DNA of 23,430 nucleotides from a virus (Duplodnaviria > Heunggongvirae > Uroviricota > Caudoviricetes). The stretch is from the IMG/VR virus record IMGVR_UViG_2671181100_000007, positions 1 through 23,430 of that record. One strand, given 5' to 3'. This document shows positions 1 to 19,087 of this stretch, in pieces. The translations under genes and the position numbers were made by a program. Under the pieces are notes generated by a model, which was not told where the DNA came from, ran no database searches, and was given only the letters and a program-made list of their open reading frames with translations. Position 1 is the stretch's first letter; each line of letters begins with the position of its first letter.

Positions 1-933
1 ATGGACAACGACAAAATTGATCAACACAGCGACGAAATTGAAGTTGAGAGCGAAGAAAAAGAGCGCGGCAAAAAAATAGAAATAGATGAAGACCGACTCC
101 CCTCCCGGGCGATGGCAATTCATGAGCATATCCGCCAGGATGGTGAAAAAGAGCTGGAACGCGACGCAATGGCGCTACTGTGGTCAGCCATTGCGGCGGG
201 TCTGTCGATGGGCGCTTCGTTACTGGCAAAAGGGATATTTCATGTCGAACTGGAAGGTGTGCCGGGCAGCTTCTTACTGGAGAATCTCGGTTATACCTTT
301 GGTTTTATTATCGTCATAATGGCCCGCCAGCAATTATTTACCGAAAACACCGTGACTGCGGTACTACCCGTCATGCAAAAACCGACAATGAGCAACGTTG
401 GCTTACTTATGCGGTTATGGGGAGTCGTGCTGCTGGGTAATATTCTCGGGACTGGTATTGCTGCGTGGGCATTTGAATATATGCCTATCTTCAATGAAGA
501 AACTCGCGATGCATTTGTCAAAATCGGCATGGATGTGATGAAGAACACCCCCAGCGAGATGTTTGCCAACGCGATCATTTCCGGCTGGCTGATCGCCACT
601 ATGGTATGGATGTTTCCTGCAGCAGGTGCGGCAAAGATTGTGGTGATTATATTGATGACCTGGCTTATTGCCCTGGGTGACACCACCCATATCGTGGTCG
701 GTTCTGTTGAAATCCTCTATCTGGTGTTTAACGGTACGCTGCACTGGAGCGATTTCATCTGGCCCTTCGCACTACCTACTTTAGCGGGGAACATCTGCGG
801 CGGCACCTTTATCTTCGCGTTAATGAGTCATGCACAGATTCGTAACGACATGAGCAACAAGCGTAAAGCAGAAGCACGCCAAAAAGCAGAACGTGCGGAA
901 AACATTAAGAAAAATGATAAAAACCCGGCATAA
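1..933 (+). CDS. yfdC: Formate/nitrite transporter (FNT) family inner-membrane protein, YfdC-like; host gene flanking the island
   Basis: Complete 310-aa ORF from ATG at nt 1 to TAA at 931-933; several hydrophobic helical stretches; translation matches my recollection of E. coli YfdC; composition looks like core enterobacterial DNA. Confidence 0.85.
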   Translation: MDNDKIDQHSDEIEVESEEKERGKKIEIDEDRLPSRAMAIHEHIRQDGEKELERDAMALLWSAIAAGLSMGASLLAKGIFHVELEGVPGSFLLENLGYTFGFIIVIMARQQLFTENTVTAVLPVMQKPTMSNVGLLMRLWGVVLLGNILGTGIAAWAFEYMPIFNEETRDAFVKIGMDVMKNTPSEMFANAIISGWLIATMVWMFPAAGAAKIVVIILMTWLIALGDTTHIVVGSVEILYLVFNGTLHWSDFIWPFALPTLAGNICGGTFIFALMSHAQIRNDMSNKRKAEARQKAERAENIKKNDKNPA

Positions 934-1005
934 ATGGCGAGGGTTTAAGCAATCGAGCGGCAGCGTACTTACCCCGCACTCCATTAGCGGGTATACTCAT
1001 GCCGC

Positions 1006-1027
1006 ATTGTCCTCTTAGTTAAATGGA
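1006..1027 (+). pseudogene. argW: 5' fragment (22 nt) of a tRNA-Arg gene (argW-like); cloverleaf cannot be completed, so not a functional tRNA
   Basis: GTCCTCTTAGTTAAATGGATAT matches the remembered 5' end of argW (acceptor stem plus D-arm start), about 70 bp after the yfdC stop as in K-12. The following sequence (GGTTATAAAACAATC...) cannot pair as D-stem, anticodon or T-arm. Confidence 0.45.
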
Positions 1028-1125
1028 TATGGTTATAAAACAATCTAATATATTGTTTTAAAAAGAGAAACATCAAAATAAATCACTTTCATTGTACTCG
1101 TTTATGTACACACAATCCGTTGACT

Positions 1126-1518
1126 TTATATGACAGGGCATTCGTCATCAGTAGGCCAAGCTCGATTGATGACGAATGTCACCACCCCGACAACTGTAAC
1201 ATCATCCAAAGCCTCGCCTTCCAGAGCCTCACCGTCTCTTGTAATGAATGCCCGGCCCATAATTTTTGCAAAATCAGTGCCGCCGCCGTATTGAATTAAA
1301 ACGGTATCTCCTTGCTTTGGTTTACCGGAGACATCGACTACGGTGTAACCAGTTTCTGTCTGAACGAGCCTGGTATTTGGGCCGGTACCGCAGAGTTTAT
1401 CGACGGTCAGTCGTACTTCTACATAGTCTGCTGCTGGCGACGGAAATCCCACGTTATAGCCCTCCGTTCGGGTTGTATAACTGGAACGTGCGCTCATCGC
1501 CTTCCTGCGTTGAGACAT
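1126..1518 (-). CDS. UmuD/LexA-like S24 peptidase-fold protein, orphan (no umuC/polV gene downstream); start codon uncertain (ATG 1518 or 1497)
   Basis: 130-aa ORF with about 23 residues preceding GFPSPAADYVE, the hallmark block that follows the self-cleavage site in UmuD/LexA-family proteins. A Lys candidate is present (DFAKIM); the Ser nucleophile position appears to be Thr (TGYTV versus UmuD SGDSM). Confidence 0.5.
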   Translation of the reverse strand: MSQRRKAMSARSSYTTRTEGYNVGFPSPAADYVEVRLTVDKLCGTGPNTRLVQTETGYTVVDVSGKPKQGDTVLIQYGGGTDFAKIMGRAFITRDGEALEGEALDDVTVVGVVTFVINRAWPTDDECPVI

Positions 1519-1693
1519 CCCGGAATGTCGTCACATAGTGCTCTATCCACTGGTTAGCCTGGCGTGGCGACCAGTGCCAGTTAACTTTTGCGAGTTCCCG
1601 GATAAAACCGGACGTTGTCACGGTGCGGCGGCCATTAGGCTCAATGACCATTGCCTGACGCCAGGCTATTTCGATATCTGAGTTTCGCGGCAT
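1454..1693 (-). CDS. Hypothetical 79-aa protein, first ORF of the LexA-box-controlled cassette; overlaps the UmuD-like ORF by 65 nt in another frame (possible frameshifted single gene)
   Basis: ATG at 1693 preceded by a strong SD (AAGGAGGTG, 7-nt spacer); LexA box 2 nt upstream of the SD; no recognisable family. Confidence 0.5.
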   Translation of the reverse strand: MPRNSDIEIAWRQAMVIEPNGRRTVTTSGFIRELAKVNWHWSPRQANQWIEHYVTTFRDVSTQEGDERTFQLYNPNGGL

Positions 1694-1710
1694 AATTTCA
1701 CCTCCTTAAA

Positions 1711-1730
1711 TACTGTTTTTATATACAGTA
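1711..1730 (-). promoter_or_regulatory. LexA operator (SOS box) TACTGTTTTTATATACAGTA
   Basis: 20-bp palindrome with CTGT-N8-ACAG spacing, near-perfect to the E. coli LexA consensus TACTGTATATATATACAGTA; sits directly upstream of the RBS of the 1693 start and overlaps candidate -10 hexamers. Confidence 0.7.
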
Positions 1731-1802
1731 GATTTAATGAGGGATCTGATCAATACAGGTTACAGCTATCGATCAGACGCACCGACGCAACGCAATGATT
1801 TT

Positions 1803-1868
1803 AAGAGGCGGGCAGGTACTTGTAGGCTGTCTTCACCTTTCCCCTCATCACACTCCTGCTGACGATTG
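1803..1868. repeat. Decayed copy (D) of the serine-invertase 3'-terminal coding sequence; direct repeat of 4295-4365
   Basis: About 65 bp alignable to the invertase 3' end (GGTACTTGTAG..TGT.TTCAC); reverse strand translates ...VKTAYKYLPAS* versus invertase ...VKTIYKYLPAT*. Confidence 0.5.
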
Positions 1869-1903
1869 GACCTCCTTTCCTCATGGTGAAGTAGTAACCG
1901 CAT

Positions 1904-1932
1904 AAAAAAAGGCACCTATTAGGTGCCTTTTT
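1904..1932. terminator. Bidirectional rho-independent terminator
   Basis: A7 - GGCACCT ATT AGGTGCC - T5: perfect 7-bp GC-rich stem flanked by an A-run and a T-run. Confidence 0.7.
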
Positions 1933-2212
1933 AATATACTTTCTTAGCAACGAACCAAGAAAGCCCAAGCCTCGTAGCCATAATCATGCGCATCAAGGAC
2001 TTTTGCGGACTTCCCGCGAACCTTACGGTAGCGACAGAAGACCCAGCGGAATCCCTTCGGAGCCGCTTTTGAAACAACTGACTTTAAACCCATCCATAAA
2101 CACCTCCTTACCGAGAGAGATTTTTCCTTGAACCTACTCTCCCGAAGTGTTATGTTCGGGTTGCTTATAGAGAAGTTCACGGTGCGATGCCTCTTGGTAT
2201 CATCGCCTAGTT

Positions 2213-2250
2213 AAACCCTGATGGTTGGCGCCGTCAGGGTTTTACTTTTT
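2213..2250 (+). terminator. Intrinsic terminator hairpin (strong on plus strand, weak on minus strand just after the ImmA stop)
   Basis: AACCCTGA-N12-TCAGGGTT followed by TTTACTTTTTT on the plus strand. Confidence 0.5.
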
Positions 2251-2770
2251 TAATAACTGTTTTTGATAATCTGCTGCGTGTGCAGAAACCCCACACGCTT
2301 CAGCTATTTCTTCTACAGACATGCCTCTTAGTAGAGCTGCATGGCTGTAGGGGACGAGCAACTCTCCACTAAAGCACTTTGCCTGCCACTCGCTGCTTTC
2401 AAAAGCTCGAATTTCCACTCCTGGCTCAGCTCGAGCAAAAGCAATATTTTTATGCATTAGTAGATGTCCAATCTCATGAGCAACCGTCATACGATCACGC
2501 CCGTTTCCTTCATGAGCTCCCTCATAAACATCTTCACGAAGGATGATAAGCGAGTCCTGAGGCATAGTTAGCCCATGTGTCCCCCCCCATCTCCTTTTCA
2601 GAAGCTGTTTCAAACGAAAAGTTAGGTAAGATCTGCGGTAGTGCGAACTCCAGCATTTCAATTACGGGAAAATACAAATCATGTATTTTCAGCATCGAGC
2701 GTAATTTGCTTGTTAAACCACGCACCGCGTTGCGGCTTAAAGGTGGTACTCGATAATCTTGTCCGCTCAA
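2242..2770 (-). CDS. ImmA/IrrE-family zinc metallopeptidase (HEIGH motif), reading frame split at a C8/G8 homopolymer (2581-2588); intact only if the tract is 7 nt
   Basis: TTG start at 2770 with AGGAGG SD gives the N-terminal 78 codons; the C-terminal 139-codon ORF (2242-2661) contains TVAHEIGHLLMH (HExxH). The two frames join if one G is removed from the G8 run (minus-strand GAG ATG GGG GGG ACA CAT ... reads EMGGTHGLTMPQ). Confidence 0.7.
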
Positions 2771-2784
2771 ACAGAGCCTCCTAC

Positions 2785-3144
2785 TTATTGTTTTTTAGTT
2801 AACAATTCACGTAGACGTTTAAACTCATCATCACTTAATTCATCGAAATTACGTGCAAATGCCATCGCTACTTCACGAGCATTTTGATTCTTACCCGATA
2901 GATTAATCTCAACAGATTGTTGAGAATCACGCGCCGCTTTTGTTAACTCATCTCCTGCATGAACGCCTTCATTAGTGAAATAGCTAATGATACTTTTCAA
3001 TACAGGATCGGTTACAGCCCGCTTTCCTGTTTCAATTGCTGAGAGGTAAGACGAGGTCACGCCCATAGCATCAGCCATGCTTTTCAGCGTGACACCGACG
3101 TCTATACGTAATTTCCTTACTTTCTTACCAAACGGCGTTAACAT
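2785..3144 (-). CDS. XRE-family helix-turn-helix transcriptional regulator (ImmR-like partner of the metallopeptidase)
   Basis: 119 aa; N-terminal block VRKLRIDVGVTLKSMADAMGVTSSYLSAIETGKR fits the Cro/C1-type HTH pattern; ATG at 3144 with AGAGG SD; stop 12 nt upstream of the ImmA start (operon). Confidence 0.8.
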   Translation of the reverse strand: MLTPFGKKVRKLRIDVGVTLKSMADAMGVTSSYLSAIETGKRAVTDPVLKSIISYFTNEGVHAGDELTKAARDSQQSVEINLSGKNQNAREVAMAFARNFDELSDDEFKRLRELLTKKQ

Positions 3145-3520
3145 ATTTTTGCCTCTCTAATGTGCGTGAGAGTCAGGTACAACTCGACTCTGAGTGCAAG
3201 ATAACAAGCCGCAGATGAAAAATCAACTGATTTCTGTTAATTTTTGCATCGAGCTTTAGTTCATCAATGTAGACAGATGATAGTTCATATTGTTCTACTT
3301 AGCTTGCCAGAGAATGCTAAAAGTACTTGCGATATCCCATTACTCATTGATGTATATAGATACAAGTACCTTGCGACATCGGAAATGGAGCAGCTTCAGC
3401 GTTATGAAAGCTGCTCCACGGGATTTCTGGGGGCGTATAATCAAGGCTCTGAAGTTATAGCAAATTGCTCATCTGAGGGCTCTGGCATACAGTTCGCAGG
3501 TGAGCAAACTTAACCGGCTG

Positions 3521-3568
3521 GAAAATATTTATAAATCGTCTTCACCCCCTCCTATTACATCGGCTACC
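3521..3568. repeat. Decayed copy (A) of the invertase 3'-end sequence
   Basis: AAATCGTCTTCACCCC...ACATCGGC; reverse strand reads ..VADVIGGGEDDL*; about 80% identical to copy B. Confidence 0.5.
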
Positions 3569-3638
3569 GACCCAATGTTTTAACTGCTCAGACCAGAAAT
3601 ATCTGGAAGCTTTAGGCATCTTCTTGGAAGATAGATGA

Positions 3639-3712
3639 GCGCAAAGACGCACACAGCAATGATGTTATGTAGTATTTTCCCCTTGAGTGTGCCTGCTCAA
3701 GGGGATTTTTTA
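3639..3712 (+). repeat. IR2 left copy (~74 bp), inverted copy of 7724-7798; contains terminator hairpin 3678-3711 (TCCCCTTGAG-N8-CTCAAGGGGA + T6)
   Basis: Aligns base-for-base with the reverse complement of 7724-7798 with about 4 mismatches; hairpin followed by TTTTTT on the plus strand. Confidence 0.65.
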
Positions 3713-3728
3713 TCGCCGTATTGTACTG

Positions 3729-3780
3729 GCAAATATTAGTAAATCGTCTTCACCCCACGCCTGTCACATCGGCCACACGC
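3729..3780. repeat. Decayed copy (B) of the invertase 3'-end sequence, abutting the stop of the recombinase-like fragment
   Basis: CACGCCTGTCACATCGGCCAC matches the invertase 3' coding sequence CACGCCTGTCACATCAGCCAC; reverse strand reads ..VADVTGVG* and, one frame over, VKTIY*. Confidence 0.55.
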
Positions 3781-3794
3781 GGCTGGACAGGCGG

Positions 3795-4217
3795 TTAGTC
3801 CGGTATGTTTCTCGCGCTACTACTGCTTACGTTAACGTCTGGTAATGATCTAGCGGCGCGACGTAAAGCGGCGTTGAAAGCAATTATAGTGACCGGCCGG
3901 CGTTGGTACTTCACACGGTTAGAATGGCTCTGAAATAAAAAAACATCTTCTGGATAGCGTTCTCTTCTACGAGCAATGATCCCCTCCACTGGAGGGGTTG
4001 ATTCAACACGTAGCTCTTTCAGGTGATCCTGTTTTCGTATCAGTATCAAGCCATCATCAATATCATCATATCGAATACTCAGCAGCCTTCCAGCGCTTAA
4101 ACCTGTGTGAAAAATTAACGCCCACAAGTCTGCCCATGTATCCGAGATGGAAACAAGATTGCTGTTAATAGTTAAAAATTGTTCAAAACTTATTGTTTTC
4201 TTACCGTTCACGAACAA
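3795..4217 (-). pseudogene. Tyrosine-recombinase-like fragment (FimB/FimE/Xer-type catalytic-domain N-terminal half; lacks the HxxR and Tyr region); TTG start, no SD
   Basis: 140-aa ORF with HTGLSAGRLLSIRYDDIDDGLILIRKQ resembling the first conserved box of tyrosine recombinases (TGxRxSELxxLxxxDID); ends before any H-x-x-R ... Y motif. Confidence 0.4.
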
Positions 4218-4294
4218 ACCAAACTGTTTTCAAAGCTGAATGAATTGATTAAGCCAAACGTAACATATCAGGAAAAGTAGTGAAATCTTTGTCT

Positions 4295-4842
4295 TCAAGT
4301 CGCCGGGAGGTACTTGTAGATTGTTTTCACGTCCACGCCTGTCACATCAGCCACCTGCTGCCGGGTAGCGCCAGTACCCAACATCCTGCGGCATCGCTCC
4401 ACAACCTCAGTGGTCATTACCCGCCGGCGGCCACCAATACACCCTGCTCTCTCGCCGCCACCAGGCCTGCGCGGGTCCTCTCCACAATCAGCTCTCGTTC
4501 CATCTCTACCAGCGCGCTCATGACGTGGAAGAAGAAGCGGCCGGCGGCCGTGCTGGTATCGATGCTATCGGTCAGGCTTCGGAAATTTACCCCGCGGGCC
4601 TGCAGCTCCGAGACCAGAGTGATTAAGTCGCGCACGCTGCGCCCCAGCCGATCCCGTTTCCAGACCACCAGCACATCGCCCGGGCGGAGCCGCCGTAAGG
4701 CGCGCTTTAACCCTGGCCGCCGGGCATTTTTCCCGCTGGCCATATCCTCAAAAACCAGCTCACATTCTGCGCGGAGCAGCGCGTTTTTCTGTAAATCGAG
4801 GTTTTGATCCCCGGTGGATACCCTCGCATAGCCAATCAGCAC
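4295..4842 (-). CDS. Serine DNA invertase (Gin/Pin/Hin/Cin family); frameshifted near 4436-4440 (catalytic domain ORF 4417-4842; C-terminal HTH continues in another frame to TGA at 4295-4297)
   Basis: GTG start with AGGAG SD; MLIGYARVSTGDQNLDLQ...VVWKRDRLGRS...SLTDSIDTSTAAGRFFFHVMSALVEMEREL is near-collinear with Mu Gin as recalled, including the catalytic Ser in RVSTGDQ. The shifted frame after codon ~135 reads IGGRRRVMTTEVVERCRRMLGTGATRQQVADVTGVDVKTIYKYLPAT (HTH domain). Confidence 0.85.
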
Positions 4843-4885
4843 TATCTAACTCCTTGAAATAGCTGATTGTAAAAAGCCACGGCCA

Positions 4886-4939
4886 TTCGCTCAAACCCTC
4901 GTTTGAGCGAACGCCTTTTTTGGAGCAAAAAACATGGCC
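4886..4939. repeat. Left inverted repeat (54 bp) containing a 26-bp gix/hix-like crossover site TTCGCTCAAACC-CT-CGTTTGAGCGAA (4886-4911), plus the RBS and ATGGCC start of the SGNH tail-fibre gene
   Basis: 53/54 identical to the reverse complement of 11198-11251; site has the Hin/Gin-type architecture (12-bp imperfect inverted half-sites with AAACC/GGTTT cores around a 2-bp centre). Confidence 0.75.
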
Positions 4940-6880
4940 TTTAACCCGGAGCTGGGGAGCACGTCTCCCGCTGTGTTGCTCGATAACGCCGAGCGCCTGG
5001 ATAAGCTGGTCAATGGGGATGCGGCCACCGTTCCCGACCGGGCCGGACAACCGCTGGACTCCTGGCGTCTTATGCTGCAGACCTTCGCTGCTGTTGTCGA
5101 AAATACCCGCCAGAACCTGATCCCACTTGGCAAGCAATACCAGAGTGTGGAAGAGGCTCAGGCTGATATTGCCAGTATTCCAGAAGGTGCCACCACCTAT
5201 GCACGCAGTCCGGATGATTCTGCTCTGGCGATCGAATACCGAAATGTCTCCGGGACGCTGACGGAAACCGGGCGCAGGATGCCATCACAGAGCTCTGTCG
5301 ACGCAGTTATCCAGTTTATCGATGAGTTTATTGCCAGTGGGGCTGTCAGTGGTGACTTCTTCCCTTTCTTTGTCGATGGGGCCGGGAACGTGCCTGTGTA
5401 CTGGGATAACGGTTTTGCGGTTTCCCGGATTGCCGCATCGTTGTATCAGATGATCTATGAGGATGTTCATGCGCGGCTGGGGGATGCGTTGAATGTGCAG
5501 GTAACAGGGGTTTCCCCTCTGTTTTTCCCGTTATTCATGGACAGCGCCGGCAATGTACCGGTGTACTGGAATGGTGGGCTGGATGCGTCGGCAATTGCGA
5601 CGGGGCTGCTGGAAAAAATATGGGCTTATATCAACGATATCATCGCCAGCGCGCTTAACCAGAATGTCCCTCTGGTTTCCCCTGGTTTTGTACCAGGGAT
5701 GATGGATGCCGCCGGAAACGTCCCGTTCTGGTTCCAGGATGGCGAGCTTGATGCGACGGGCATCGGGCCAAACATCAGGGGAATTTTTGCAAGATGGTAT
5801 CAGCGGCGTATGTACACCGCTGCTTACAACATTCCTCTGCATACCGACGGGCGAACTCTGTGGCGCTGGAAAGCGAAGAAAGCTCAGCTCAAAGCTGGCC
5901 TTGCAACCCGGCCACACTTCATGCTGACGGGTGACAGCTGGACGCAGAATAACGAACTGGCGACCGCTATCGCCGGGCTGCTGCATGATGATTATGGTGA
6001 TGCCGGTCTTGGCTGGCGCACGGTTAACTACGGAGCGGCACGCGATGGCTCGAATATCAACCGCTCTGCAGGGTGGAATTTGTATGACTCATCGCCGACA
6101 AGTGGTGCGCCGCTGTACGGCTGCGGAATTGATGGTCAGTCAGTCAATACGACCATGGCGACCGACTATTTCAGGGTGACGAATGTCCGCTGCACGGACT
6201 ACCGTATTTACTACCAGGATTTGAACGGGCGTTTCCAGTACGGCTACGACGCTGGCGGGATCACTCAGTGGACAGAGGTTGTCTGCGGGAATACCGGCAC
6301 GACAAAATCGGTGTTGCTGACAGGCATGGCCGACGAGGTCAGAACCATATACATCAAAACCGATGGCAACACGGGGCGTGTCGCTATCCACGGGTTTTAT
6401 CTGTGGCGCAGCGGCGTTGCGGGGTGTGTGATGAGCAAGGCGGGGAATTCCGGGATTCTTGCCGATCAGTTCCTGCTGTTCTCCGACAAAATCGCAGAGT
6501 ACCTGAGCACAATGCAGCCTGACGTGATTGCGATTGTCATCGGGAATAACGATTACAGGATTTCTGAATCGACAGCCACATTCCGTACTGCTCTGCAAAC
6601 GTACATTGCTGCCTGTCGCGCCGTGCTCCCTGATGTGAGCTTTATTCTGATGGCACCACCCCGCACGAACGGAACAGCAATAACGCCCATCGTTGATTTC
6701 CGTGATGTCATGTACGACCTGTCACAGACGCTGAATGTCGAGTTTTTCAGCATCTATGACCTTTTCGACTCCTGGGCTGAAATGAACAGCCTCGGCTGCT
6801 TTCTCGATAACCTGCACCCGAATGCTACGGGCAGCAACCTGGTCGCAACGTCACTCTACAATGCACTGATTAAAGGCTAA
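4934..6880 (+). CDS. Tail fibre/tailspike protein (648 aa): shared N-terminal anchor domain, three tandem ~55-aa repeats, C-terminal SGNH/GDSL hydrolase (esterase) domain
   Basis: N-terminal ~115 aa homologous to the N-terminus of the 1113-aa fibre. Repeats FPFFVDGAGNVPVYWDNG / FPLFMDSAGNVPVYWNGG / VPGMMDAAGNVPFWFQDG. SGNH blocks: MLTGDSWTQ (GDS), VIGNNDY (GxND), DNLHPN (DxxH). Confidence 0.8.
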   Translation: MAFNPELGSTSPAVLLDNAERLDKLVNGDAATVPDRAGQPLDSWRLMLQTFAAVVENTRQNLIPLGKQYQSVEEAQADIASIPEGATTYARSPDDSALAIEYRNVSGTLTETGRRMPSQSSVDAVIQFIDEFIASGAVSGDFFPFFVDGAGNVPVYWDNGFAVSRIAASLYQMIYEDVHARLGDALNVQVTGVSPLFFPLFMDSAGNVPVYWNGGLDASAIATGLLEKIWAYINDIIASALNQNVPLVSPGFVPGMMDAAGNVPFWFQDGELDATGIGPNIRGIFARWYQRRMYTAAYNIPLHTDGRTLWRWKAKKAQLKAGLATRPHFMLTGDSWTQNNELATAIAGLLHDDYGDAGLGWRTVNYGAARDGSNINRSAGWNLYDSSPTSGAPLYGCGIDGQSVNTTMATDYFRVTNVRCTDYRIYYQDLNGRFQYGYDAGGITQWTEVVCGNTGTTKSVLLTGMADEVRTIYIKTDGNTGRVAIHGFYLWRSGVAGCVMSKAGNSGILADQFLLFSDKIAEYLSTMQPDVIAIVIGNNDYRISESTATFRTALQTYIAACRAVLPDVSFILMAPPRTNGTAITPIVDFRDVMYDLSQTLNVEFFSIYDLFDSWAEMNSLGCFLDNLHPNATGSNLVATSLYNALIKG

Positions 6881-6886
6881 TTTCTT

Positions 6887-7687
6887 ATGAACAATATCTA
6901 TATCCCAAAACTCGGTGACGTCGTAATTCCGGGAACTCATCCGAAAAAAGGGCATTTCATGCAGCCGGATTTACCTGTTATCGCAGGGTTGAAAGCGATG
7001 TACATCCACGGCGGAACCTTAGAGCTGAGCATGAGAAACCGTGCCGACAACACCGCTCCACTGACCAAAGTCGGTTCGCCATCGATCCAGGCTGATTTCG
7101 GGGCGGTCTGTAGTTTCGGTAACTGTTTTGATACCGGGAAAGTTTCTACCAAAAACCAGACCCATATCGTGATCTGTAAGCCGGTAAAACCAACGGCGGC
7201 TACCGAAACCCAGCAGGCCTTCATGATGGGTAACTACAGCTATTCCGGCTCACCGGCAGTGTATCGCGGCGACGGACTCGCTTTTCTGTTTTCCGGGCAA
7301 AGTCTTTACGGGGCCTTTGTAGAGGACAATAACGTCACGCCAACGAACATGATCAACTACTACAGCGCGGCATACGACACAACGAAGTGGGCCGCTTTTG
7401 TGGAGCTGGTTGATGGTGACAATGGGATTGCCAGGATTGCTGCCAGGCAGGGAGGACCGCTTAACTGGCAGAACTCGAAAGCGTTGGTCAACCGAACCGC
7501 TTATACCGACCGCACGATCCGGATAGGTTCGCATCATGCGCCCGCTGCATACCCTGCAGGCGCTGCCATTACGATGGGGATGGAGCTGATTTTCGAGACA
7601 GCGCTGACACAGGCGCAGGTTGCTTCCGTTCTCGACAGTATAAGTGCCTATCTCAGTTCGGCATGGGGAATTACCGATTTAGGTTAA
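6887..7687 (+). CDS. Hypothetical protein co-encoded 6 nt downstream of the SGNH fibre gene (possible fibre-associated accessory or second receptor-binding subunit)
   Basis: 266-aa ORF, same strand and cassette as the fibre gene; no recognisable catalytic motif; weak SD. Confidence 0.45.
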   Translation: MNNIYIPKLGDVVIPGTHPKKGHFMQPDLPVIAGLKAMYIHGGTLELSMRNRADNTAPLTKVGSPSIQADFGAVCSFGNCFDTGKVSTKNQTHIVICKPVKPTAATETQQAFMMGNYSYSGSPAVYRGDGLAFLFSGQSLYGAFVEDNNVTPTNMINYYSAAYDTTKWAAFVELVDGDNGIARIAARQGGPLNWQNSKALVNRTAYTDRTIRIGSHHAPAAYPAGAAITMGMELIFETALTQAQVASVLDSISAYLSSAWGITDLG

Positions 7688-7723
7688 ATATATACGTTAC
7701 TGATTACCAGACGGGCAGGTAGA

Positions 7724-7798
7724 GAAAAAATCCCCCTGAGCAGGCACACTCAGGGGGAAAGTACTGCATAACATCATTGCTGTGTGCGTCTTTGCGCG
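7724..7798 (-). repeat. IR2 right copy; contains minus-strand intrinsic terminator (hairpin 7731-7758, U-run from 7725-7730) downstream of the 1113-aa fibre gene
   Basis: TCCCCCTGAG-N8-CTCAGGGGGA with A6 on the plus strand (T6 on minus); about 74 bp inverted identity to 3639-3712. Confidence 0.65.
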
Positions 7799-7861
7799 CA
7801 GCATATTTTCAGAGAAAACCTCCATCGTTTCCAGATGTTTCTTACTATTTCAGACTGTGTA

Positions 7862-10800
7862 CTAACCCTGGTTGTAAAAAAGCCACAAATCAGACAACGT
7901 TGACGCCACAAAACTGATCTCTGACAGCGTGTCTCCCGCAGCATTCGTGCCGTCGAATCCAAAGAACCGTTTAGGGAAGCCAGGCTTTGGCCCGTACTGC
8001 GTTTTCAGTTTATCCAGCAGACTGCCCGCTGCCGATAACGCTGATGGCCGGTCTGAAAAAAACAGCGGCAGCAGCGCAAAGGTGATGGTATTGGCAGCAC
8101 CCCGGCGGCTTTCGGAAATGCAAAAATCCACCTCCTTAAACGCCCCCATTCCGCTGGTCGCGGACAGAATGAAATTAACCAGGTCAAAGGCCGGTTTACG
8201 GTCCAGCAGTCTGCAGGCTAACAGATAGTTGTTAACGGCATAGCTGGCGTAGTGCAGGTACATCGCCCGGCTCGGGTATTCCGTCGCTGCATCCTGCAGA
8301 ATTCCTTCCGCCTTCATAAACTGGTTACGGTCCGTCAGCAGCGCCTCAACAGCATTAAAGGCTGTCAGGTAATGCCCGCTGCTGTCCTGCCCGGTATAAA
8401 TCCCCAGCGCCAGCGCCCGCAGTCCCGTGGCATTGGCATTACTGGCACCAATCCCGGTGGCTGTGCCAGCAATCTGAATACCGCCGTTGGCGGCCCAGTA
8501 CGTATAGACGGCATCCGCCAGGCTTTTTATCCCCGCCTTCAGCTCGGTAATTTTGGCCGGGTCACCCGCCTTCACCGCCATTTTGTAGAGCCACTCGTAA
8601 CAGGGAATGCTCAGACGCGACTGAAACTGCAGCCCCCACCACCCGCCGGTATACGCGGCCCCCGGATTGATGATGGAGCCCTTATCCAGTGCCATGTAAT
8701 TTTTAAAGGTGGCGTACACCGTATCCAGATCACCGGTGCCATAACGGGCCAGCAGGAAAATGTCCGCCGGTACACAATAAAATGCCGGATATTCCAGTTT
8801 ACCTTCACCGTTGATGAATGGCATGCCACCGCCATATTGGCGGGCGTCTTCCGATTTCCACCACTCCACTGAACCGCGAATATGGCAGGCCATTTTTTCC
8901 AGCAGATCCTGACGGATAACGCCCGCATAACCACAGTCACCCGCAAATCCTACCGGGCGGTTAAGTGCCTGGCTGTTAATGAGGGCATTCGTGGCATTCG
9001 ACGCCGCCGCTGTCACACTGTTATCGCAGTCAATCCACAGCTCGTGTGTCCAGGTCCAGCCTTTTTTCACCGGCCAGTTCAGGAACGAATAATCGGTAAT
9101 ATTCGATGAACCATACCGCCATCCGGCATCAATGCGGGTGTACGCTGCCCCGTCGGGTACCAGCGCCGTACCGCGAACCGGACGGTTTGGCCCGTAGGTT
9201 GGCCCGTCCCGGTGAACGTCTCCGTTTGCATAGACCAGCGCCGCCGTAAAGCGTTTACCCGTTGTGGCATCGGTAAAGTAAGCCAGCGCACGGGAGGTGT
9301 CGTAGGTGTACACTCCGTCGTTAAGCAGAAGTCGGGAGTACACCCCGAACAGCACGCCAACGGGAATATCCTGCATCGCCGTATTCATGACACGGACAGA
9401 AACCTTCCCGTTTCTGAACAGACGGTACCGGACTGTTGCCATCAGGGCGCCCTCTGCCAGCGTGTTTCCGGCCCGGTTACGTACCGTCATTTCCAGCTCG
9501 GTAAAGACCGGCCCTGTGTTCACCAGCCGGATGGATGCCCCCAGAATAAGCCGCTCATCCACCGCCACCCCGGCAACCACCTGGCTGTAATAGCAGCCGT
9601 GTGTAATGTTATGAACAATACCCGCCGGGTCGGTAATGCTGGTCAGGGCAAATCCCTGCTGGCGTAAAAAGGTGTATTTGTACCCGCTGACCGTCACGCT
9701 GTAACCGTCGGCAGTCTTCACCAGCTGCGGCCAGGAGCCAGAGGCCAGATCAGTCCGGCGACGGTTCCAGGCTTTCACCTCGTAATACTTCTGCGCACCA
9801 CTGGACAGCGAATCCAGAATGAAAACAGACCCTGCCGCCAGGGAGCCATCCGCGTGATAGCTGATATTCGACTTCTGACGCGGGTTAACATGGATATCAT
9901 CAGCAAACTGGGCATCAAACGTATTACCGTCAGTATCTGTCACCAGCAGGGCATCGGAATCCGGGACGTCACCGGGTGAGAAACTGACCCTGATTTCTAC
10001 CGGATAATTAACGTACCCGGCTGAAAGGGTATTTTTGACGTCCGTACCTTTTCGCTGATAGTTACCCACCCGCACCGATCGCACCACTTTACGCCGCCAG
10101 ACGGCATAACTTCCTGCCGGAAGGACAGCCAGACCGGATGTGGTGAAGCCTTCAGTGCTGACGGTATAGTCACCGGCAGGCAACAGGGCTTTGAAATAAT
10201 CCTCAAACCCGGTCTGTGCGATAGTGGTATCGTACGCCGCATATCCGGCAAACAGGCAATCCGGAGCAATAGTTTTCAGGTAGTCTCCCACCGTGGCGGC
10301 AGTAAAGCCCGCAGCAGTCAGCTCTGCCAGGGTGACCACAAACTGAATGGCATTCGCAATTGCCGTACCCGAAATGGACTTCCTCGTCACCGACGTGACC
10401 AGTCCGGCCTGAGCGGGGGCGAATTTCCCGGTTAAGTCCAGCGCGATATAGTTTGAACCGGCCACCGGGACGCCGAAGCCAGCAGGCAGGTCATAGCGCA
10501 CCCGGACCAGCGTTGCGGTGGTTTCCAGAATGCCCACATACTTCAGGTCCCGGAACCGGAAGAGGCGATAGGCTGACCAGAATTTTCCCTGAGCGTACTG
10601 CGTCTTTGTTCCCGGCAGTACAAAGGCCATCACTTCAGAACCCGCTGAAGAAAATACCAGCCGACTGTAAACCGTGTTCACATCCGACGTTGTCGCCAGG
10701 GTACGCAGTTCAATTACTGAATCTTCCGGTAGCATCAGCGCAGGGTCGTCCAGCAGCTTTAACCCTGTCAGATCCTGGTAGTCGCCATATTGTCGCTTAA

Positions 10801-11203
10801 TACCTTCCCGGTCTGTCAGCGTCGCTGTATATGCCAGCCCCGCTTCAACCCCTTCCTGCGAGAGCATTTTCCGCCCCGTGGCCGTTAGTGTCCCTGCCAC
10901 GTTCATATACTCTGTAGCCAGCGCGCTGCCGTCCTGGCTGCGCACGTAGGTTGTGGCGTTCACAGGGATATTCGCGATATCTGCCTGCGCTGCCGTCAGG
11001 GTCATGTACTGCTTACTGAGCGGGATGATGTTCTGCCGAATTTCGTCATTCTTTGCCATCATCTGGCGCCAGGTATCGAGCGGTTCGCCTGCGCGGTCGT
11101 TAACCGTTCCGGCCGGACCGTTAACCAGCTCGTCAGCGCGCTTGACGTTATCCAGGAATATTTCAGGCGTCGTCGTTCCCAAAGGCGGGTTAAGTTCGGC
11201 CAT
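7862..11203 (-). CDS. Tail fibre/tailspike protein (1113 aa) with shared N-terminal anchor domain and large unassigned C-terminal region (candidate receptor-binding or polysaccharide-degrading domain); the cassette currently in the expressed orientation
   Basis: ATGGCC start inside the right IR, 23 bp after the gix-like site; same strand as the upstream tail operon; N-terminal ~115 aa homologous to the 4934 ORF. Confidence 0.8.
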   Translation of the reverse strand: MAELNPPLGTTTPEIFLDNVKRADELVNGPAGTVNDRAGEPLDTWRQMMAKNDEIRQNIIPLSKQYMTLTAAQADIANIPVNATTYVRSQDGSALATEYMNVAGTLTATGRKMLSQEGVEAGLAYTATLTDREGIKRQYGDYQDLTGLKLLDDPALMLPEDSVIELRTLATTSDVNTVYSRLVFSSAGSEVMAFVLPGTKTQYAQGKFWSAYRLFRFRDLKYVGILETTATLVRVRYDLPAGFGVPVAGSNYIALDLTGKFAPAQAGLVTSVTRKSISGTAIANAIQFVVTLAELTAAGFTAATVGDYLKTIAPDCLFAGYAAYDTTIAQTGFEDYFKALLPAGDYTVSTEGFTTSGLAVLPAGSYAVWRRKVVRSVRVGNYQRKGTDVKNTLSAGYVNYPVEIRVSFSPGDVPDSDALLVTDTDGNTFDAQFADDIHVNPRQKSNISYHADGSLAAGSVFILDSLSSGAQKYYEVKAWNRRRTDLASGSWPQLVKTADGYSVTVSGYKYTFLRQQGFALTSITDPAGIVHNITHGCYYSQVVAGVAVDERLILGASIRLVNTGPVFTELEMTVRNRAGNTLAEGALMATVRYRLFRNGKVSVRVMNTAMQDIPVGVLFGVYSRLLLNDGVYTYDTSRALAYFTDATTGKRFTAALVYANGDVHRDGPTYGPNRPVRGTALVPDGAAYTRIDAGWRYGSSNITDYSFLNWPVKKGWTWTHELWIDCDNSVTAAASNATNALINSQALNRPVGFAGDCGYAGVIRQDLLEKMACHIRGSVEWWKSEDARQYGGGMPFINGEGKLEYPAFYCVPADIFLLARYGTGDLDTVYATFKNYMALDKGSIINPGAAYTGGWWGLQFQSRLSIPCYEWLYKMAVKAGDPAKITELKAGIKSLADAVYTYWAANGGIQIAGTATGIGASNANATGLRALALGIYTGQDSSGHYLTAFNAVEALLTDRNQFMKAEGILQDAATEYPSRAMYLHYASYAVNNYLLACRLLDRKPAFDLVNFILSATSGMGAFKEVDFCISESRRGAANTITFALLPLFFSDRPSALSAAGSLLDKLKTQYGPKPGFPKRFFGFDGTNAAGDTLSEISFVASTLSDLWLFYNQG

Positions 11204-11251
11204 GTTTTTTGCTCCAAAAAAGGCGTTCGCCCAAACGAGGGTTTGAGCGAA
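11198..11251. repeat. Right inverted repeat (54 bp) containing gix/hix-like site (11226-11251; minus strand TTCGCTCAAACC-CT-CGTTTGGGCGAA)
   Basis: Inverted copy of 4886-4939 with one mismatch; lies between the J-like gene stop (11280) and the fibre start (11203). Confidence 0.75.
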
Positions 11252-11279
11252 AGAAAAGTTGAAAGGGATTTTTTTGGTA

Positions 11280-14200
11280 TTAAGCAGCGTCGCCGGGGTA
11301 TGTGGCGTCGTCGTACTGGTAGAACGATTCGAGGTATTCTTTAGCGGTGACCTGGCATGTTCCGTCAGACTGCGGGGCGATCTCCTCTACAATGGCGTCG
11401 TAGACGTGGCGCGTTGATCCGCAGAACACCAGGCGGATCGGCTCGATGGTTGCCGACGACAGGTCAACCTTCATCGGGTCATCAAACTCGCTCAGGTGCG
11501 GGACTGACAGCTGAAAATCGCCTACCCTGCTCGCCACCATCAGCCCGGATGCAGAACCATCCTGATAGCGGATCAGCGCGCGGGGATTTTCGAAAGACCA
11601 GTCCAGCGGCTCCGTAACGGTGAACGTTGTCACGCCACCAGCCGTTGTCATCGCCTCCACCAGACAGGAAATCGTGTTGTTACCCGGAATATCATCCGTG
11701 AGCACAATGCGATCGCCCAAGTTGTAGCACAGCGCGTCCAGCTCGGTAGTGGTCTGGAACGTCACCCGCTGCTGCAGGTATTTCATCAGGCGACGCATGC
11801 CGAGCTGGTAGGCGTGATCCTGATTCAGTACCCCATCGAGTTTGTAGTTTTCGATTTTCACTGGCGTTGGATTGTCCGACGTCCGGCATTTAACGGTCTC
11901 CTCTGCCCAGGTGACGCCGTTGATGTACGTCACGTCGACGCCATCAAAATCATCGTCAGACGGTACGATAAATCCGCTTTGCAGCTCCTCCACCATCTCA
12001 TGCGGAGTGATCACGCCAGTCCAGGGCTTAATCCCCTCACGGTTGACCGTCGCCAGGCCATCGCTCAACAGGAAGCGGGACTTCCCGGCATTGGCTATCT
12101 TCTGCAGCATTTCCAGCGCTGAGATACTGTCGCCGGTAGCGAAATCGAAATACTCTCCCCGTGGCGTCCAGTACGCAGACTCCAGCGCGTTGATGGTGTC
12201 GGCATCCATCTCCAGTCCCAGCGAGTTCCCGACATGCAGCAGCGCCCCAGAAATGGTTCTGGCCGTTCCTGAGTCATAGGCCCGCGTGGCCACCACGTTT
12301 ACGCGGCGGTCCGACTGAGCCGCCAATTTGCCCCCCGTCTCAACGGTCACCGCCATCAGCGACACGCCGGGATAGGATGAAGGGCGCGTCAGCAGTCGCC
12401 CGCGCAGTGCCTGCCAGTACATCGAATCCCTGGCGTTGTTTGAGCCCTGCTCATTGCGCCGGCGACAGCGAACCTCTACCAGCCCTGGTGAGCTGAGGGT
12501 GATCCGCTCAGTGAATCCCAGCCCGTTGACGTTTTTAAGCGCATACTCTCCCTGGTGACTCACCCACCCCGATCCGGAACCGTAGACGCGATACTGAATC
12601 TCCCACTCCACGTGGCGGATCCGTTTTTTGCCCTTACTGTCAAAGCCACAGATGCCGTTCGGGAAGGAGAAATTCACCTCGAATGCATCCACCACTTCAT
12701 TCTCAGGGCAAACCAGGAACGGCCCCAGCCAGCTCAGCGTGTCGTTAAGACCAGTGGCCTCATAGTCGATCATCGTCCGGGCGGAGAATCCCGGCCATGA
12801 CTCATCAACGGCACCGGAAACCAGGCGCACCACCGTCGCCGTCGTGCCGTCAGCTGACACAATCCGGTACTCATTCCCGCGGTGAGCAAGTGAAAGCCGT
12901 TGCACCCCCTCCGGCATCCCGGAGAATGCAGTGCCCGTGGCGCTGTTATAGGCAAGCGTCACATTCGCCGTTACCGCCGGGCTGCCGCCGGTTGATGCCG
13001 TGCCGGAGGTGTAAACCGGAGCATCACCGAAAACAGCTGCAGGCAGCGAAGAGGACGTGATCGCCCCACCCGCGAACGGACTGGCCGACTCGGTTATCAG
13101 TACGGTGCCGCCGTTGTCCTGTGCAACCAGGCCGGAGCCAGTGAGTCCCTCGGTGATGGCCGCCAGCAGTCCCGACATCGAGACATAGTTAGCCACCAGC
13201 GACACCGGGTAGGTAACCCCCTGCCAGGTGATCGTGAACGTGCTGGAGCTGGTCGAAAAATCGTAGGTGGTCGGGGCCGCACTGGCCTGGACTTTTGCCG
13301 CACTCCCCCCGGTGCCGGGCACTGCAGCCTGACCGGGGGTATATGACGCGATAAACAGATCGTAATCGACAGAGTTAAACCCCAGCGTCACCGGCATTCC
13401 AACCACCGGCGCGATCTCCGTCAGCAGCGGGCTGGCGATAACGCTGTATCCAGCCGCCGTGGTGATCTGGTAGTTCGCCGGGGCTTTCAGTTCGACCACG
13501 GCGCCAGCGACCCAACTGGGCGGCAGTGCGTTATCGTTCTCGTCATTATCGTCATCATCATCCGTATCCAGCCCGGTAAACGTTACGCTCGAACCGGATA
13601 CGGTCATGCTGTCTGCGATAATGTCGTCTGCGTCCGGCGACGTCTGGGCCATATCCAGCCCGGTGCCGGATGACGTCCCGCCCACTTCGGTGGAGTTGAC
13701 CCAGTTTTCGCTGCGCTCATCACCGGAAACGTCCGCGCCTGGCGGGTAATGGGTGCTGCTGAATCCCGGTAGCGTTGAAGCTGGCGTACTGCCAACCCGG
13801 ATATCGCCATTGGTATAAATCAGATCACCGACACCGAGACACAGCAGCATCTGGACGCGCATTTTCGTAGGATCGGCGGCATCAAACCGGGTAACGGGCT
13901 GCACGACATAATCCGGATAAATACGCACGCGCCCAAAAACTTCACGAATCGCATCACCCAGTTTCGCGCTGTTTCCTTTAGCGGGGTTCAGGTCGAGGCT
14001 TCGACCTGTGGATGACGTATAGCCGCCGGCATCAATGTTACTCATCATGAACAATGAATAAGCCGCAGATGCGACGGCAATGCCCACTCCTATCCAGGCA
14101 ATTGTCGCGGCCTCAAGCCCGAAAGGCACCGGATAAAGCCGGACATCACTATCAGGGTGGATCACGAAAATAGCCCATTCGCCTGGCGGAATTGACTGCC

Positions 14201-14348
14201 CCTCAACCTCAACGGTCAGCGGTGGGACATCCCGATCCTCGTAGCCTTCAACATTTGCCACCAGCCAGCTGCGAATACTGGTTACACCATGCTCATGCGT
14301 TTCGAGTGGTTCACCGGGAAGCCGGGACGGGTAAAAACGAATGGTCAT
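11280..14348 (-). CDS. Tail tip / host-specificity protein (J-like central fibre, 1022 aa)
   Basis: Large ORF at the distal end of the tail module, translationally coupled (ATGA overlap) to the NlpC/P60 gene; N-terminal hydrophobic segment; acidic run TDDDDDNDEND. Confidence 0.7.
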   Translation of the reverse strand: MTIRFYPSRLPGEPLETHEHGVTSIRSWLVANVEGYEDRDVPPLTVEVEGQSIPPGEWAIFVIHPDSDVRLYPVPFGLEAATIAWIGVGIAVASAAYSLFMMSNIDAGGYTSSTGRSLDLNPAKGNSAKLGDAIREVFGRVRIYPDYVVQPVTRFDAADPTKMRVQMLLCLGVGDLIYTNGDIRVGSTPASTLPGFSSTHYPPGADVSGDERSENWVNSTEVGGTSSGTGLDMAQTSPDADDIIADSMTVSGSSVTFTGLDTDDDDDNDENDNALPPSWVAGAVVELKAPANYQITTAAGYSVIASPLLTEIAPVVGMPVTLGFNSVDYDLFIASYTPGQAAVPGTGGSAAKVQASAAPTTYDFSTSSSTFTITWQGVTYPVSLVANYVSMSGLLAAITEGLTGSGLVAQDNGGTVLITESASPFAGGAITSSSLPAAVFGDAPVYTSGTASTGGSPAVTANVTLAYNSATGTAFSGMPEGVQRLSLAHRGNEYRIVSADGTTATVVRLVSGAVDESWPGFSARTMIDYEATGLNDTLSWLGPFLVCPENEVVDAFEVNFSFPNGICGFDSKGKKRIRHVEWEIQYRVYGSGSGWVSHQGEYALKNVNGLGFTERITLSSPGLVEVRCRRRNEQGSNNARDSMYWQALRGRLLTRPSSYPGVSLMAVTVETGGKLAAQSDRRVNVVATRAYDSGTARTISGALLHVGNSLGLEMDADTINALESAYWTPRGEYFDFATGDSISALEMLQKIANAGKSRFLLSDGLATVNREGIKPWTGVITPHEMVEELQSGFIVPSDDDFDGVDVTYINGVTWAEETVKCRTSDNPTPVKIENYKLDGVLNQDHAYQLGMRRLMKYLQQRVTFQTTTELDALCYNLGDRIVLTDDIPGNNTISCLVEAMTTAGGVTTFTVTEPLDWSFENPRALIRYQDGSASGLMVASRVGDFQLSVPHLSEFDDPMKVDLSSATIEPIRLVFCGSTRHVYDAIVEEIAPQSDGTCQVTAKEYLESFYQYDDATYPGDAA

Positions 14349-14725
14349 TGCCAGAACTCCACGCGAACAAAGCGCCGCTTAAATCGCGGCAACGGCAGAA
14401 AAGTTACGTTCGTGCCTGGGTTGCATTCCGCCACATGCAACAGACCATCGATACTGACTACGATCCCTACATGGGTGACAGTCGACCCGGAATAACAGGC
14501 CACCCCGGCCCCTTCGCAGGGTTCGCAGCGCTCAAGGGTAAGCATCATCCGGCGCGCTTCCCGGTCGAGGCCGCCGTTGTCTTTGGTGACCCCGGCAAAA
14601 TCGGGCCAGACGGGTAAATTCAGGTCGCGGCGTATCTCGTTCACAATGCCGAAACAGTCGAGTTGCGGGTATACGCGCCCGCCCTTCAGCCAGGTGACTG
14701 AACGGTATTTATCAGGGTTAAACAT
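14345..14725 (-). CDS. NlpC/P60 (C40 peptidase)-family tail protein
   Basis: 126 aa with Cys in DCFGIV and His in THVGIVV, spaced as in NlpC/P60 catalytic cores; position matches tail-tip assembly genes. Confidence 0.65.
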   Translation of the reverse strand: MFNPDKYRSVTWLKGGRVYPQLDCFGIVNEIRRDLNLPVWPDFAGVTKDNGGLDREARRMMLTLERCEPCEGAGVACYSGSTVTHVGIVVSIDGLLHVAECNPGTNVTFLPLPRFKRRFVRVEFWQ

Positions 14726-14734
14726 TGGAATTCC

Positions 14735-15217
14735 TTAGCTGATATAACGCAGTCCGGGGAATACAGGGAGCGTGTAGCGGTAACGCGGCCAGGCGGTATC
14801 AAGGATATTCATATAACCCGCGGTAATCTGCACCTCTGTCGCCGTCCAGGAGCCCGACTTGATTTTCAGCGTATACGGCACTTCCGCAGGGGCCGCCAAA
14901 TCCGTGGAGATATAACGCCGGTACGTCAGCGATGCAGGCAATCTGTTAGCCAGGGCATTGCGGATCGCCGTGGACACAACACCATCGATATTGCACAGGG
15001 CAAATTTGAGGTCCTGCGTGCCGTCCGCATTGCGCGCCGGCAGAGCAATGTCTATCGCACAGGCGGAAAACGTTACGGTATCGCCGTTCTCCGTCGTTGC
15101 CGTAATACCCTCGTAGCCCTGGCACAGATAATGGACGTCAGAACCAATGGTGATCTGCAGCGTTTCAATGATCACCTCCGGTCCGCTGCTGGCGTAGAGG
15201 CGTTTAATCTGCGTCAT
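14735..15217 (-). CDS. Minor tail protein (distal tail), start taken at internal ATG 15217
   Basis: ORF in the tail operon between the M-like and NlpC/P60 genes; longer ORF-track version (to 15304) would overlap the upstream gene by 100 nt. Confidence 0.5.
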   Translation of the reverse strand: MTQIKRLYASSGPEVIIETLQITIGSDVHYLCQGYEGITATTENGDTVTFSACAIDIALPARNADGTQDLKFALCNIDGVVSTAIRNALANRLPASLTYRRYISTDLAAPAEVPYTLKIKSGSWTATEVQITAGYMNILDTAWPRYRYTLPVFPGLRYIS

Positions 15218-15677
15218 GCTTCGGCCACTCCTTATTAAGCGCAATATCCAGAAGAGACTGTCCCGCAAGCCATTCCGGGTAATGGCCCCAACCAACTGGG
15301 GCAAGAGGTCTCTCTCTTAATTCAACTATTGCCGAATAACGCCACAAGCCTGGTTTAATGAATGAGGGTCCCTTATAAATCCCTTTAAATCGACATTTAA
15401 AAAACTTTAATCCAACTGGAGTTTTACATTTCATGTAAAACCATGCTGCACCATCAGTTAAAACGTCTCTATACCACGATTCAAATACCTGTGCATGCGC
15501 ATCACTTTTAAATTGCCATACAACAGTATTATTAGTTGGTACTGATGTATATTTTCTACGCTGTCTGGCAAGCCCTCCAATCCTGTCGGTTCTAATCATT
15601 GGATCTATTGGTTCAAATCCATAATTATCGTACGTCGGTCCGGGTATGTATTCATGAGGATAATATATATCGGTCAT
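15204..15677 (-). CDS. Minor tail protein (possibly lambda gpM-like); low-GC patch
   Basis: ATG overlaps the tape-measure stop (TAATG coupling); weak resemblance to the gpM pattern; clearly more AT-rich than its neighbours. Confidence 0.5.
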   Translation of the reverse strand: MTDIYYPHEYIPGPTYDNYGFEPIDPMIRTDRIGGLARQRRKYTSVPTNNTVVWQFKSDAHAQVFESWYRDVLTDGAAWFYMKCKTPVGLKFFKCRFKGIYKGPSFIKPGLWRYSAIVELRERPLAPVGWGHYPEWLAGQSLLDIALNKEWPKHDAD

Positions 15678-18373: not shown

Positions 18374-19087
18374 AGCGAACTCCTCCAGGAATGCTTTCGG
18401 CTATCGACATAAGTTGCTCGTCTGAATCCAACTCACTTTCTCCCTCACGTTTTGATAACAAACTAAAATCAAGGGAGGTAATTCCGTGTTTATCCGGATC
18501 GGTGAAGAGACTGACAGCAAGATAACTAAGATTGGCAAAATGAGAGTCCAGGAGGTCGTCGCTAAAACAATTATCCTGGTAATACTCAATCCATTCGAAC
18601 CATTCAGAGGAAGACATTTCCGAAAGCATTGCGCGCCAGTCTGGCCGTCCAAACTCCCTGGCTAATCGCATAGCAAAGCGACGTGAGCGGGTCAGGACTT
18701 TTCCAAATCTGGCTCTTCCTCTTCTTCAGTTTTCTCAGTGTCATTATTAACTGGTGGGATCATCCCTGAAAGCATACGCACAAGTAATGCAGCGCTGCCC
18801 AATAACCCTGGTGGATATTTTCGTATAATTTCAGGGAAAATATCTTTCCCTTCACGTTGCTCTTCATCAGCCTCGCTCAAGGATAATGCAACGAGCATGG
18901 CCTGATCACGCATAGTCAACAAGGTGGCCAATTTAAAGTTTTCTTCAGGTGTGCTTTCCTCTGACGGTAATGACTTCCTCTCTTCAACCATAAATTCAAT
19001 ATATTGCATTCTACTGTAAGCCGATAACTCAAACAGTAAAATATTCTCACCATCGGGATTTAATGTGTCTTTTTTAAGATAAGTCAT
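18354..19087 (-). CDS. Tail assembly chaperone G-T fusion made by programmed -1 ribosomal frameshift near the 3' end of G (window 18698-18726)
   Basis: The T ORF (MRLAREFGRPDWRAMLSEMSS... like lambda gpT) is in the -1 frame relative to G; that frame is open across the last ~11 codons of G; candidate slip heptamer GGAAAAG at 18698-18704. Confidence 0.65.
18692..19087 (-). CDS. Tail assembly chaperone (lambda gpG-like)
   Basis: 131 aa, acidic C-terminus (TEKTEEEEEPDLEKS), between major tail and tape measure genes; resembles lambda G. Confidence 0.8.
   Translation of the reverse strand: MTYLKKDTLNPDGENILLFELSAYSRMQYIEFMVEERKSLPSEESTPEENFKLATLLTMRDQAMLVALSLSEADEEQREGKDIFPEIIRKYPPGLLGSAALLVRMLSGMIPPVNNDTEKTEEEEEPDLEKS

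Follow-up and report, generated by a model that had tools for sequence, protein, structure and literature searches.

A 22-nt argW stump beside yfdC very likely marks the attL site of a Klebsiella-type siphovirus prophage recombining in the D-arm of the tRNA-Arg(CCU) gene

The stretch of DNA analysed here (the window, 23,430 nt) leads from an Escherichia coli chromosomal segment, ending in the first nucleotides of the tRNA gene argW, directly into a prophage. Very likely, the argW stump and the phage-derived arm following it constitute the attL site of a temperate Klebsiella-type siphovirus of approximately 40 to 45 kb, which rebuilds argW at its far end. In the proposed mechanism, a tyrosine integrase would recombine in the D-arm of the tRNA-Arg(CCU) gene argW instead of its 3′ half. 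The phage attP site would carry, beside the integrase gene, its own copy of argW nt 1 to 22 (up to nt 27 in other variants), and owing to this copy the host promoter together with host nt 1 to 22 would stay beside yfdC as the stump after integration. At the integrase end, about 40 kb away, the 5′ part delivered by the phage and host nt 23 to 75 would make up a complete argW. The features of the window that bear on this reading are compiled in Table 1.

Table 1. Features at the host-prophage junction and in the adjoining prophage (positions in the window)
Feature	Position	Strand	Description
yfdC	1..933	+	310-aa ORF; bacterial side of the junction; annotated so in matching genomes
Presumed native argW promoter	969..997	+	-35 TTACCC (969-974), 17-nt spacer, -10 TATACT (992-997); read by eye
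argW stump	1009..1030	+	5′ strand of acceptor stem, nt 8-9, 5′ strand of D-stem, D-loop, first base of 3′ strand of D-stem
Core block common to attB and attP	1014..1030		argW nt 6-22; strand exchange would lie inside
Phage-derived att arm	1031..1125		attP side distal to the integrase gene; 26% GC
A-T-only hairpin	1036..1060		UAAAACAAU / AUUGUUUUA, 7-nt loop, directly past the core; minimum-free-energy structure
Candidate tandem arm-type integrase-binding sites	1094..1111	+	GTACTC (1094-1099) and GTACAC (1106-1111)
Prophage body in window	1126..23430	-	Cargo ORFs, regulators, invertase/fibre segment, tail, ClpP-capsid fusion; from ORFs and Pfam

On the host side, the gene bordering the prophage is annotated as yfdC in all genomes matching the window, and the K-12 sequence from yfdC through argW nt 20 aligns with window positions 1-1028 without gaps at 98.7% identity. 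The argW gene of K-12, an annotated tRNA-Arg(CCU) beginning with GTCCTCTTAGTTAAATGGATATAACGAG, is matched exactly over its nt 1-22 (22/22). Past nt 22, the window reads GGTTATAAAAC / GGTTATAAAACAATC and departs from argW. Folding of the intact gene assigns nt 10-13/22-25 to the D-stem and nt 14-21 to the D-loop, and the break thus falls after the first base of the 3′ strand of the D-stem. The GC content is 26% in 1031-1125 versus 49.5% in 934-1030. These data bear out the initial annotation of this DNA, which had recognised host sequence through yfdC, no more than the first 22 nt of argW, a break in the D-arm and AT-rich foreign DNA behind it; only its feature start at position 1006 lies 3 nt too early, as the match to argW begins at 1009. 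Since the fragment lies at the syntenic position after yfdC, it is not a chance match. As is characteristic of an attL site, a displaced tRNA-end fragment is found at the normal locus with phage genes adjoining. Upstream of it, the presumed native argW promoter, identical in sequence in K-12 where it precedes the intact gene, would now be severed from the tRNA body; it scored below the threshold in a simple sigma-70 scan.

Sequences joining both phage arms through the shared core were found in viral contigs. The search with the core and the window-type arm as query gave 11 stretches. The contig IMGVR_UViG_3300045988_110545 (36.6 kb) is regarded as circular because of a 55-nt terminal overlap. 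Across its join, cagtaagttctatGTCCCCTTAGTTAAATGGATATAgttataaaacaat combines the integrase-side arm, 23 nt of argW and a variant of the window arm, the attP core between both arms being GTCCCCTTAGTTAAATGGATATA; in this circular metagenomic contig, an attP thus connects the two arms by way of the shared core. Its arm is 95.9% identical to window positions 1008-1736. Internal attP sites are present in three more metagenomic viral contigs (L063, L102, L103), which have the same integrase arm and other distal arms, and eight viral contigs from isolates show a window-type attL at one end and the integrase, with no tRNA seen, at the other. The nearest records in phage collections, such as ON470608.1, are extracted prophages with yfdC and argW flanks. 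They were rejected as evidence for attP, not being packaged genomes, and were used as extra lysogens.

The phage arm next to the stump has further properties of an attachment site. The hairpin directly past the core is kept, with an altered loop, in all window-type arms, and it gave no match to a terminator pattern. Farther on, a tandem GTAC(T/C/A)(C/T)-N6-GTACAC stands 61-63 nt beyond the core end in seven of the eight arms that could be read that far (the window, L001, L003, L063, L102, L103 and L038), and the eighth arm (733R5 record, L006) has a single GTACAC plus a degenerate second copy. Apart from these tandem sites at a fixed distance, the distal arms show no sequence relationship to one another. 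The integrase-side arms of Klebsiella-type, E. coli-type and Proteus phages likewise have GTACAC and GTACTC at conserved positions, and over the two strands of the entire window the arm-site motif is met no more than 17 times. Because the integrase, a tyrosine recombinase of 389 aa with Arm-DNA-bind_3 and Phage_integrase domains, possesses an arm-binding domain, GTACTC and GTACAC at 1094-1111 are good candidates for arm-type integrase sites, as judged from the sequence. At this level, the arm holds what an arm-binding integrase should find in an attL.

The far end of this genome (attR) lies outside the window, and its intact argW is deduced from relatives. Eight complete E. coli genomes carry the window-type junction, and in all eight the integrase is located beside an annotated tRNA-Arg; the distance from stump to integrase is 37-45 kb in seven of them. 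The whole prophage can be followed in strain 184/2aE, where yfdC and a 23-nt argW stump are succeeded by tail, head, lysis and replication genes, the integrase, an intact argW and the host csc genes. Here, the intact tRNA-Arg gene is divergent from a 389-aa tyrosine integrase gene at a distance of 195 bp. EC31 is organised in the same way, but its stump measures 24 nt and its distal arm is of another type, and the record ON470608.1 contains the prophage with its flanks, a 27-nt stump, and integrase plus intact argW at the far end. The first 16.9 kb of the window are 100% identical to two draft contigs, LOOH01000056.1 (GCA_001575545.1) and AASDSY010000080.1 (GCA_012379775.1), the latter stopping within the prophage. 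From the yfdC start to the end of LOOH01000056.1, the distance equals the length of the window with a deviation of no more than 2 nt, and the window end at 23430 is therefore probably an assembly break inside the prophage head genes. In E. coli p10A (NZ_CP049081.1), 1.9 Mb separate the yfdC-side junction (3.32 Mb) from the integrase-argW end (1.39 Mb), compared with 42 kb in the sister strain p10B (NZ_CP103758.1). The chromosome of p10A thus seems to have undergone a large inversion, one breakpoint of which lies inside the prophage.

The origin of the two parts of the rebuilt gene can be read from single nucleotides. In all three E. coli lysogens inspected (184/2aE, EC31 and the 733R5 record), the rebuilt argW starts with GTCCCC, whereas the yfdC-side stump of E. 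coli lysogens retains the host GTCCTC. The rebuilt gene bears the phage C5 while attL keeps the host T5, and its 5′ end is therefore phage-derived. C5 is found at attL in hosts with a yfdC only 81-84% identical to that of the window, and these hosts are taken to be Klebsiella-type on the basis of this identity. At nt 23, the window has a phage-derived G where argW has an A, which sets the right limit of the exchange. Together with C5 in the rebuilt gene, this confines strand exchange to argW nt 6-22 (17 nt). Within this block, the overlap region would most plausibly be the 8-nt D-loop, with the D-stem inverted repeat GTTA/TAAC as core-type sites. In the hybrid tRNA, a C5-G68 pair replaces the U5-G68 wobble and the cloverleaf is retained at -29 kcal/mol.

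Homologues of the integrase fall into Klebsiella-type contigs (98% identity), E. coli (86%) and Proteus (75%), and all three lineages have a divergent tRNA-Arg(CCT) gene about 195 bp away. The 5′ copy carried by the phage matches the usual host tRNA of each lineage, with GTCCC in the Klebsiella-type, GTCCT in the E. coli and GTTCC in the Proteus representatives. The linkage to a tRNA-Arg target is established for homologues down to about 75% identity. An E. coli integrase cluster of 55% identity is located at contig ends. The Orbaceae bacterium CP133583.1 encodes a homologue of 63% identity without a tRNA gene in its vicinity; 171 bp separate it from a divergently oriented exonuclease I (sbcB-like) gene, a hint that the 5′ side of a protein-coding gene is the target of this related integrase.

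A target site of this kind has a consequence for transcription: because the D-loop belongs to the 5′ part of argW, what has to come from the phage is a 5′ end and a promoter and not a 3′ end and a terminator. The spacer between integrase and tRNA contains, amid poorly conserved sequence, a motif TTGAT(G/T)-N18-TA(A/T/C)(C/T)AT, which is directed at the tRNA, has its end 39 nt ahead of nt 1 and is kept in the three lineages with 75-98% integrase identity. We hypothesise that this motif is a phage-borne promoter driving the rebuilt argW, and transcription of the rebuilt gene probably does start from a phage-borne promoter in the 195-bp spacer. The proposal is derived from conservation, since the simple sigma-70 scan of the spacer made no tRNA-directed call and returned only one site, facing the integrase gene. 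The motif could instead serve integrase binding or be the integrase gene's own promoter.

Two other histories of the locus would lead to a cell lacking a functional argW, and we consider both very improbable. In one of them, argW nt 23-75 were removed by a deletion or rearrangement after a classical integration in the 3′ half, leaving a strain without argW. The rest of the gene is indeed absent from the window, with no further argW k-mers of at least 10 nt on either strand, and rearrangement at the locus does occur, as is evident from the prophage ends 1.9 Mb apart in p10A. However, the same or nearly the same junction recurs in independent E. coli assemblies and in the hosts with 81-84% identical yfdC, the DNA past the break is the distal arm of an observed attP with its conserved candidate arm-type sites, and every complete genome with the junction keeps an intact argW at the integrase end. 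The initial annotation had left two explanations side by side. An exact and recurrent junction with an att arm beyond it does not support the secondary loss of argW that it had considered, and its other proposal, a 5′ crossover with an intact tRNA expected at the far end of the island, gains support from the eight of eight complete E. coli relatives, the C5 marker and the attP.

In the other history, an equally improbable one, the crossover took place on the 5′ side as proposed here and the integrase end was lost afterwards, so that the window would belong to a decayed remnant and argW would be absent or promoterless. It draws on the position of the far end outside the window and on IS and group II intron insertions in related prophages, but the 22 kb seen contain long intact tail and head ORFs, and integrase and argW are retained in all complete relatives. 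A chimeric contig joined via a short repeat is hardly credible: the source resembles a draft assembly whose contig ends inside the prophage, and some short contigs (L022, L094) end at the core, but such an assembly artefact is ruled out by closed genomes with the same junction and by its recurrence, at 99.6-100% identity, in four or more independent assemblies.

A complete tRNA of unusual structure at 1009-1083, implying that the argW sequence assumed in the initial annotation was wrong, has next to no probability, as the annotated argW of K-12 agrees with the assumed sequence, ARAGORN detected no tRNA and Rfam gave no match at gathering score in the whole window, and 1009-1083 folds at only -7.3 kcal/mol (z -0.48, no better than shuffled sequence), compared with -26 kcal/mol for the intact argW cloverleaf. 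The earlier statement that the stump cannot complete a cloverleaf is thereby confirmed, and the case named there as its refutation, a different argW allowing a full tRNA fold, was checked and does not apply. An attL site generated by integration through the D-arm is accordingly the reading we retain.

The remainder of the window was examined for the nature of the prophage. Its backbone matches Klebsiella siphovirus prophages, and the late genes (TipJ, tape measure, tail, ClpP-capsid fusion) are encoded on the minus strand. Of the complete relatives, the E. coli EC31 prophage comes closest, covering 59% of the window at 96.9% identity. Near the prophage end, an ORF for an ImmA/IrrE-type Peptidase_M78 (2242-2661, minus strand) adjoins an HTH_3 regulator (2785-3144, minus strand); by its domains, this is a typical accessory regulator or anti-repressor pair (2242-3144).

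The prophage also contains an invertible segment of 6.3 kb, at whose borders stand inverted repeats of 54 nt (4886-4939 and 11198-11251) that are 98% complementary. Just outside it, a serine invertase is encoded (4417-4842; Resolvase domain, E 7e-47). Two alternative genes have their start codons inside these repeats: a 1113-aa ORF (7862-11203) that currently stands in line behind TipJ, and a 648-aa ORF (4934-6880), which encodes a C-terminal SGNH/GDSL hydrolase domain and is succeeded by an ORF of 266 aa. In GCA_052207375.1, the segment is flipped, with flanks 99.97-99.99% identical. This organisation resembles that of a Gin/Cin/Pin-type switch, by which receptor-binding proteins would be exchanged. 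Another pair of inverted repeats (3636-3714 / 7722-7800; 79 nt, 92% complementary) partly overlaps the first segment.

Integration on the 5′ side of tRNA-Arg(CCU) through the D-arm is an already described class, to which the window adds one more lysogen; it is known from both the Klebsiella arg2A elements and the argW prophage of strain TW14359. Integrases of clade I.d target the 5′ acceptor half, D-stem and D-loop of Klebsiella arg2A with their islands upstream, and the D-loop has been called a novel sublocation beside anticodon-loop, T-loop and 3′-end (10.1101/2020.11.02.365908). The tDNA arg2A can be occupied at both ends (10.1101/2020.11.02.365908). [quoted passage not shown] It differs from them in its host, E. 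coli, and for this reason the rebuilt tRNA is a hybrid with the phage-type C5 (C5-G68 versus host U5-G68). The likeness to clade I.d is one of description, the link in sequence being the integrase cluster of 98% identity, which its source names Klebsiella pneumoniae.

With regard to the classical sublocations, the symmetric ones of the Williams classification (anticodon loop and T-loop) have the crossover in a stem-flanked loop, and the present site with GTTA/TAAC around the D-loop AATGGATA conforms to this; it deviates in the choice of the loop, since the D-loop lies towards the 5′ end of the gene. A crossover in the 3′ half with the integrase downstream, as in the classical sublocations, was not found, the crossover lying within nt 6-22 and the integrase gene being upstream and divergent. 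The statement in the initial annotation that classical tRNA-targeting phages use the 3′ half is in line with the literature (10.1101/2020.11.02.365908). The dusA-specific integrases (PMC4482086) likewise act at the 5′ end of their target gene, and differ in having a protein-coding target and in belonging to another integrase family.

At argW itself, the Stx2a prophage of the O157:H7 strain TW14359 lies between the gene upstream of argW (spelled yfcD) and argW-intS, with an integrase 'intW' at the right junction, the argW-proximal end (PMC8309913). It thus occupies the same side of argW as the prophage described here and has its integrase proximal to argW as well, but it has another backbone and an integrase more distantly related to the present one. 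Neither an stx gene nor a lambdoid Stx late region was seen in the window, and no Stx-like product was found among the 13 window ORFs scanned with Pfam, which represent the window half of the prophage. The IntS protein of KplE1/CPS-53 (PMC2951348) shares with the integrase studied the target argW, the tyrosine recombinase type and the Arm-DNA-bind_3 domain; in contrast, it uses the 3′ end of argW, the K-12 prophage starting from nt 61 with intS downstream, and the two proteins are 22% identical.

The gene order phage, integrase, tRNA-Arg, intS is found in O157:H7 7.1_Anguil. A single argW flanked by two elements was observed in EC31, O157:H7 7.1_Anguil, L016 and L019, with the D-arm type on the 5′ side; the partner on the 3′ side is an IntS-type element in EC31 and 7.1_Anguil, and one with another integrase in L016 and L019.

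Among complete E. coli genomes, 5191 of 5426 contain a contiguous unit of upstream region plus argW, and 235 of 5426 do not, so that, as an upper bound, about 4% are without a contiguous promoter-argW unit. In two of the listed genomes of the latter group, the match stops at argW nt 23 and nt 27, respectively, with the remainder elsewhere. At megablast sensitivity, this integrase type stands beside argW in at least 86 E. coli genomes; among them are STEC of serotypes O157:H7, O145:H28, O103:H2 and O26, which match the query of integrase plus argW with approximately 76% DNA identity.

Per 1000 codons, the phage ORFs in 1126-23132 contain 5.6 AGG and 4.3 AGA (38 and 29 out of 6813 codons), and both codons are unused in yfdC. 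For AGG, which is decoded by the tRNA from the rebuilt gene, this usage exceeds the E. coli average several-fold. Lysogeny might accordingly rewire argW and not merely preserve it, with the host promoter and nt 1-5 being replaced and a hybrid C5-G68 tRNA placed under a phage-borne promoter; in that case, the phage could control how much of this rare AGG-reading tRNA is available to its own genes. We hold this proposition to be rather unlikely.

To the known class of D-arm integration, the present analysis adds two small details, namely the C5 marker, by which the crossover is narrowed to the D-arm, and a conserved promoter-like motif as a candidate for driving the rebuilt gene. The 22-nt stump beside yfdC is a precise marker of the prophage boundary and not evidence of the loss of argW. 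In genome annotation, the intact argW is to be sought beside the integrase, about 40 kb away. Finally, the double occupancy of argW by unrelated integrase families bears on the typing of Stx and other prophages located at this gene.
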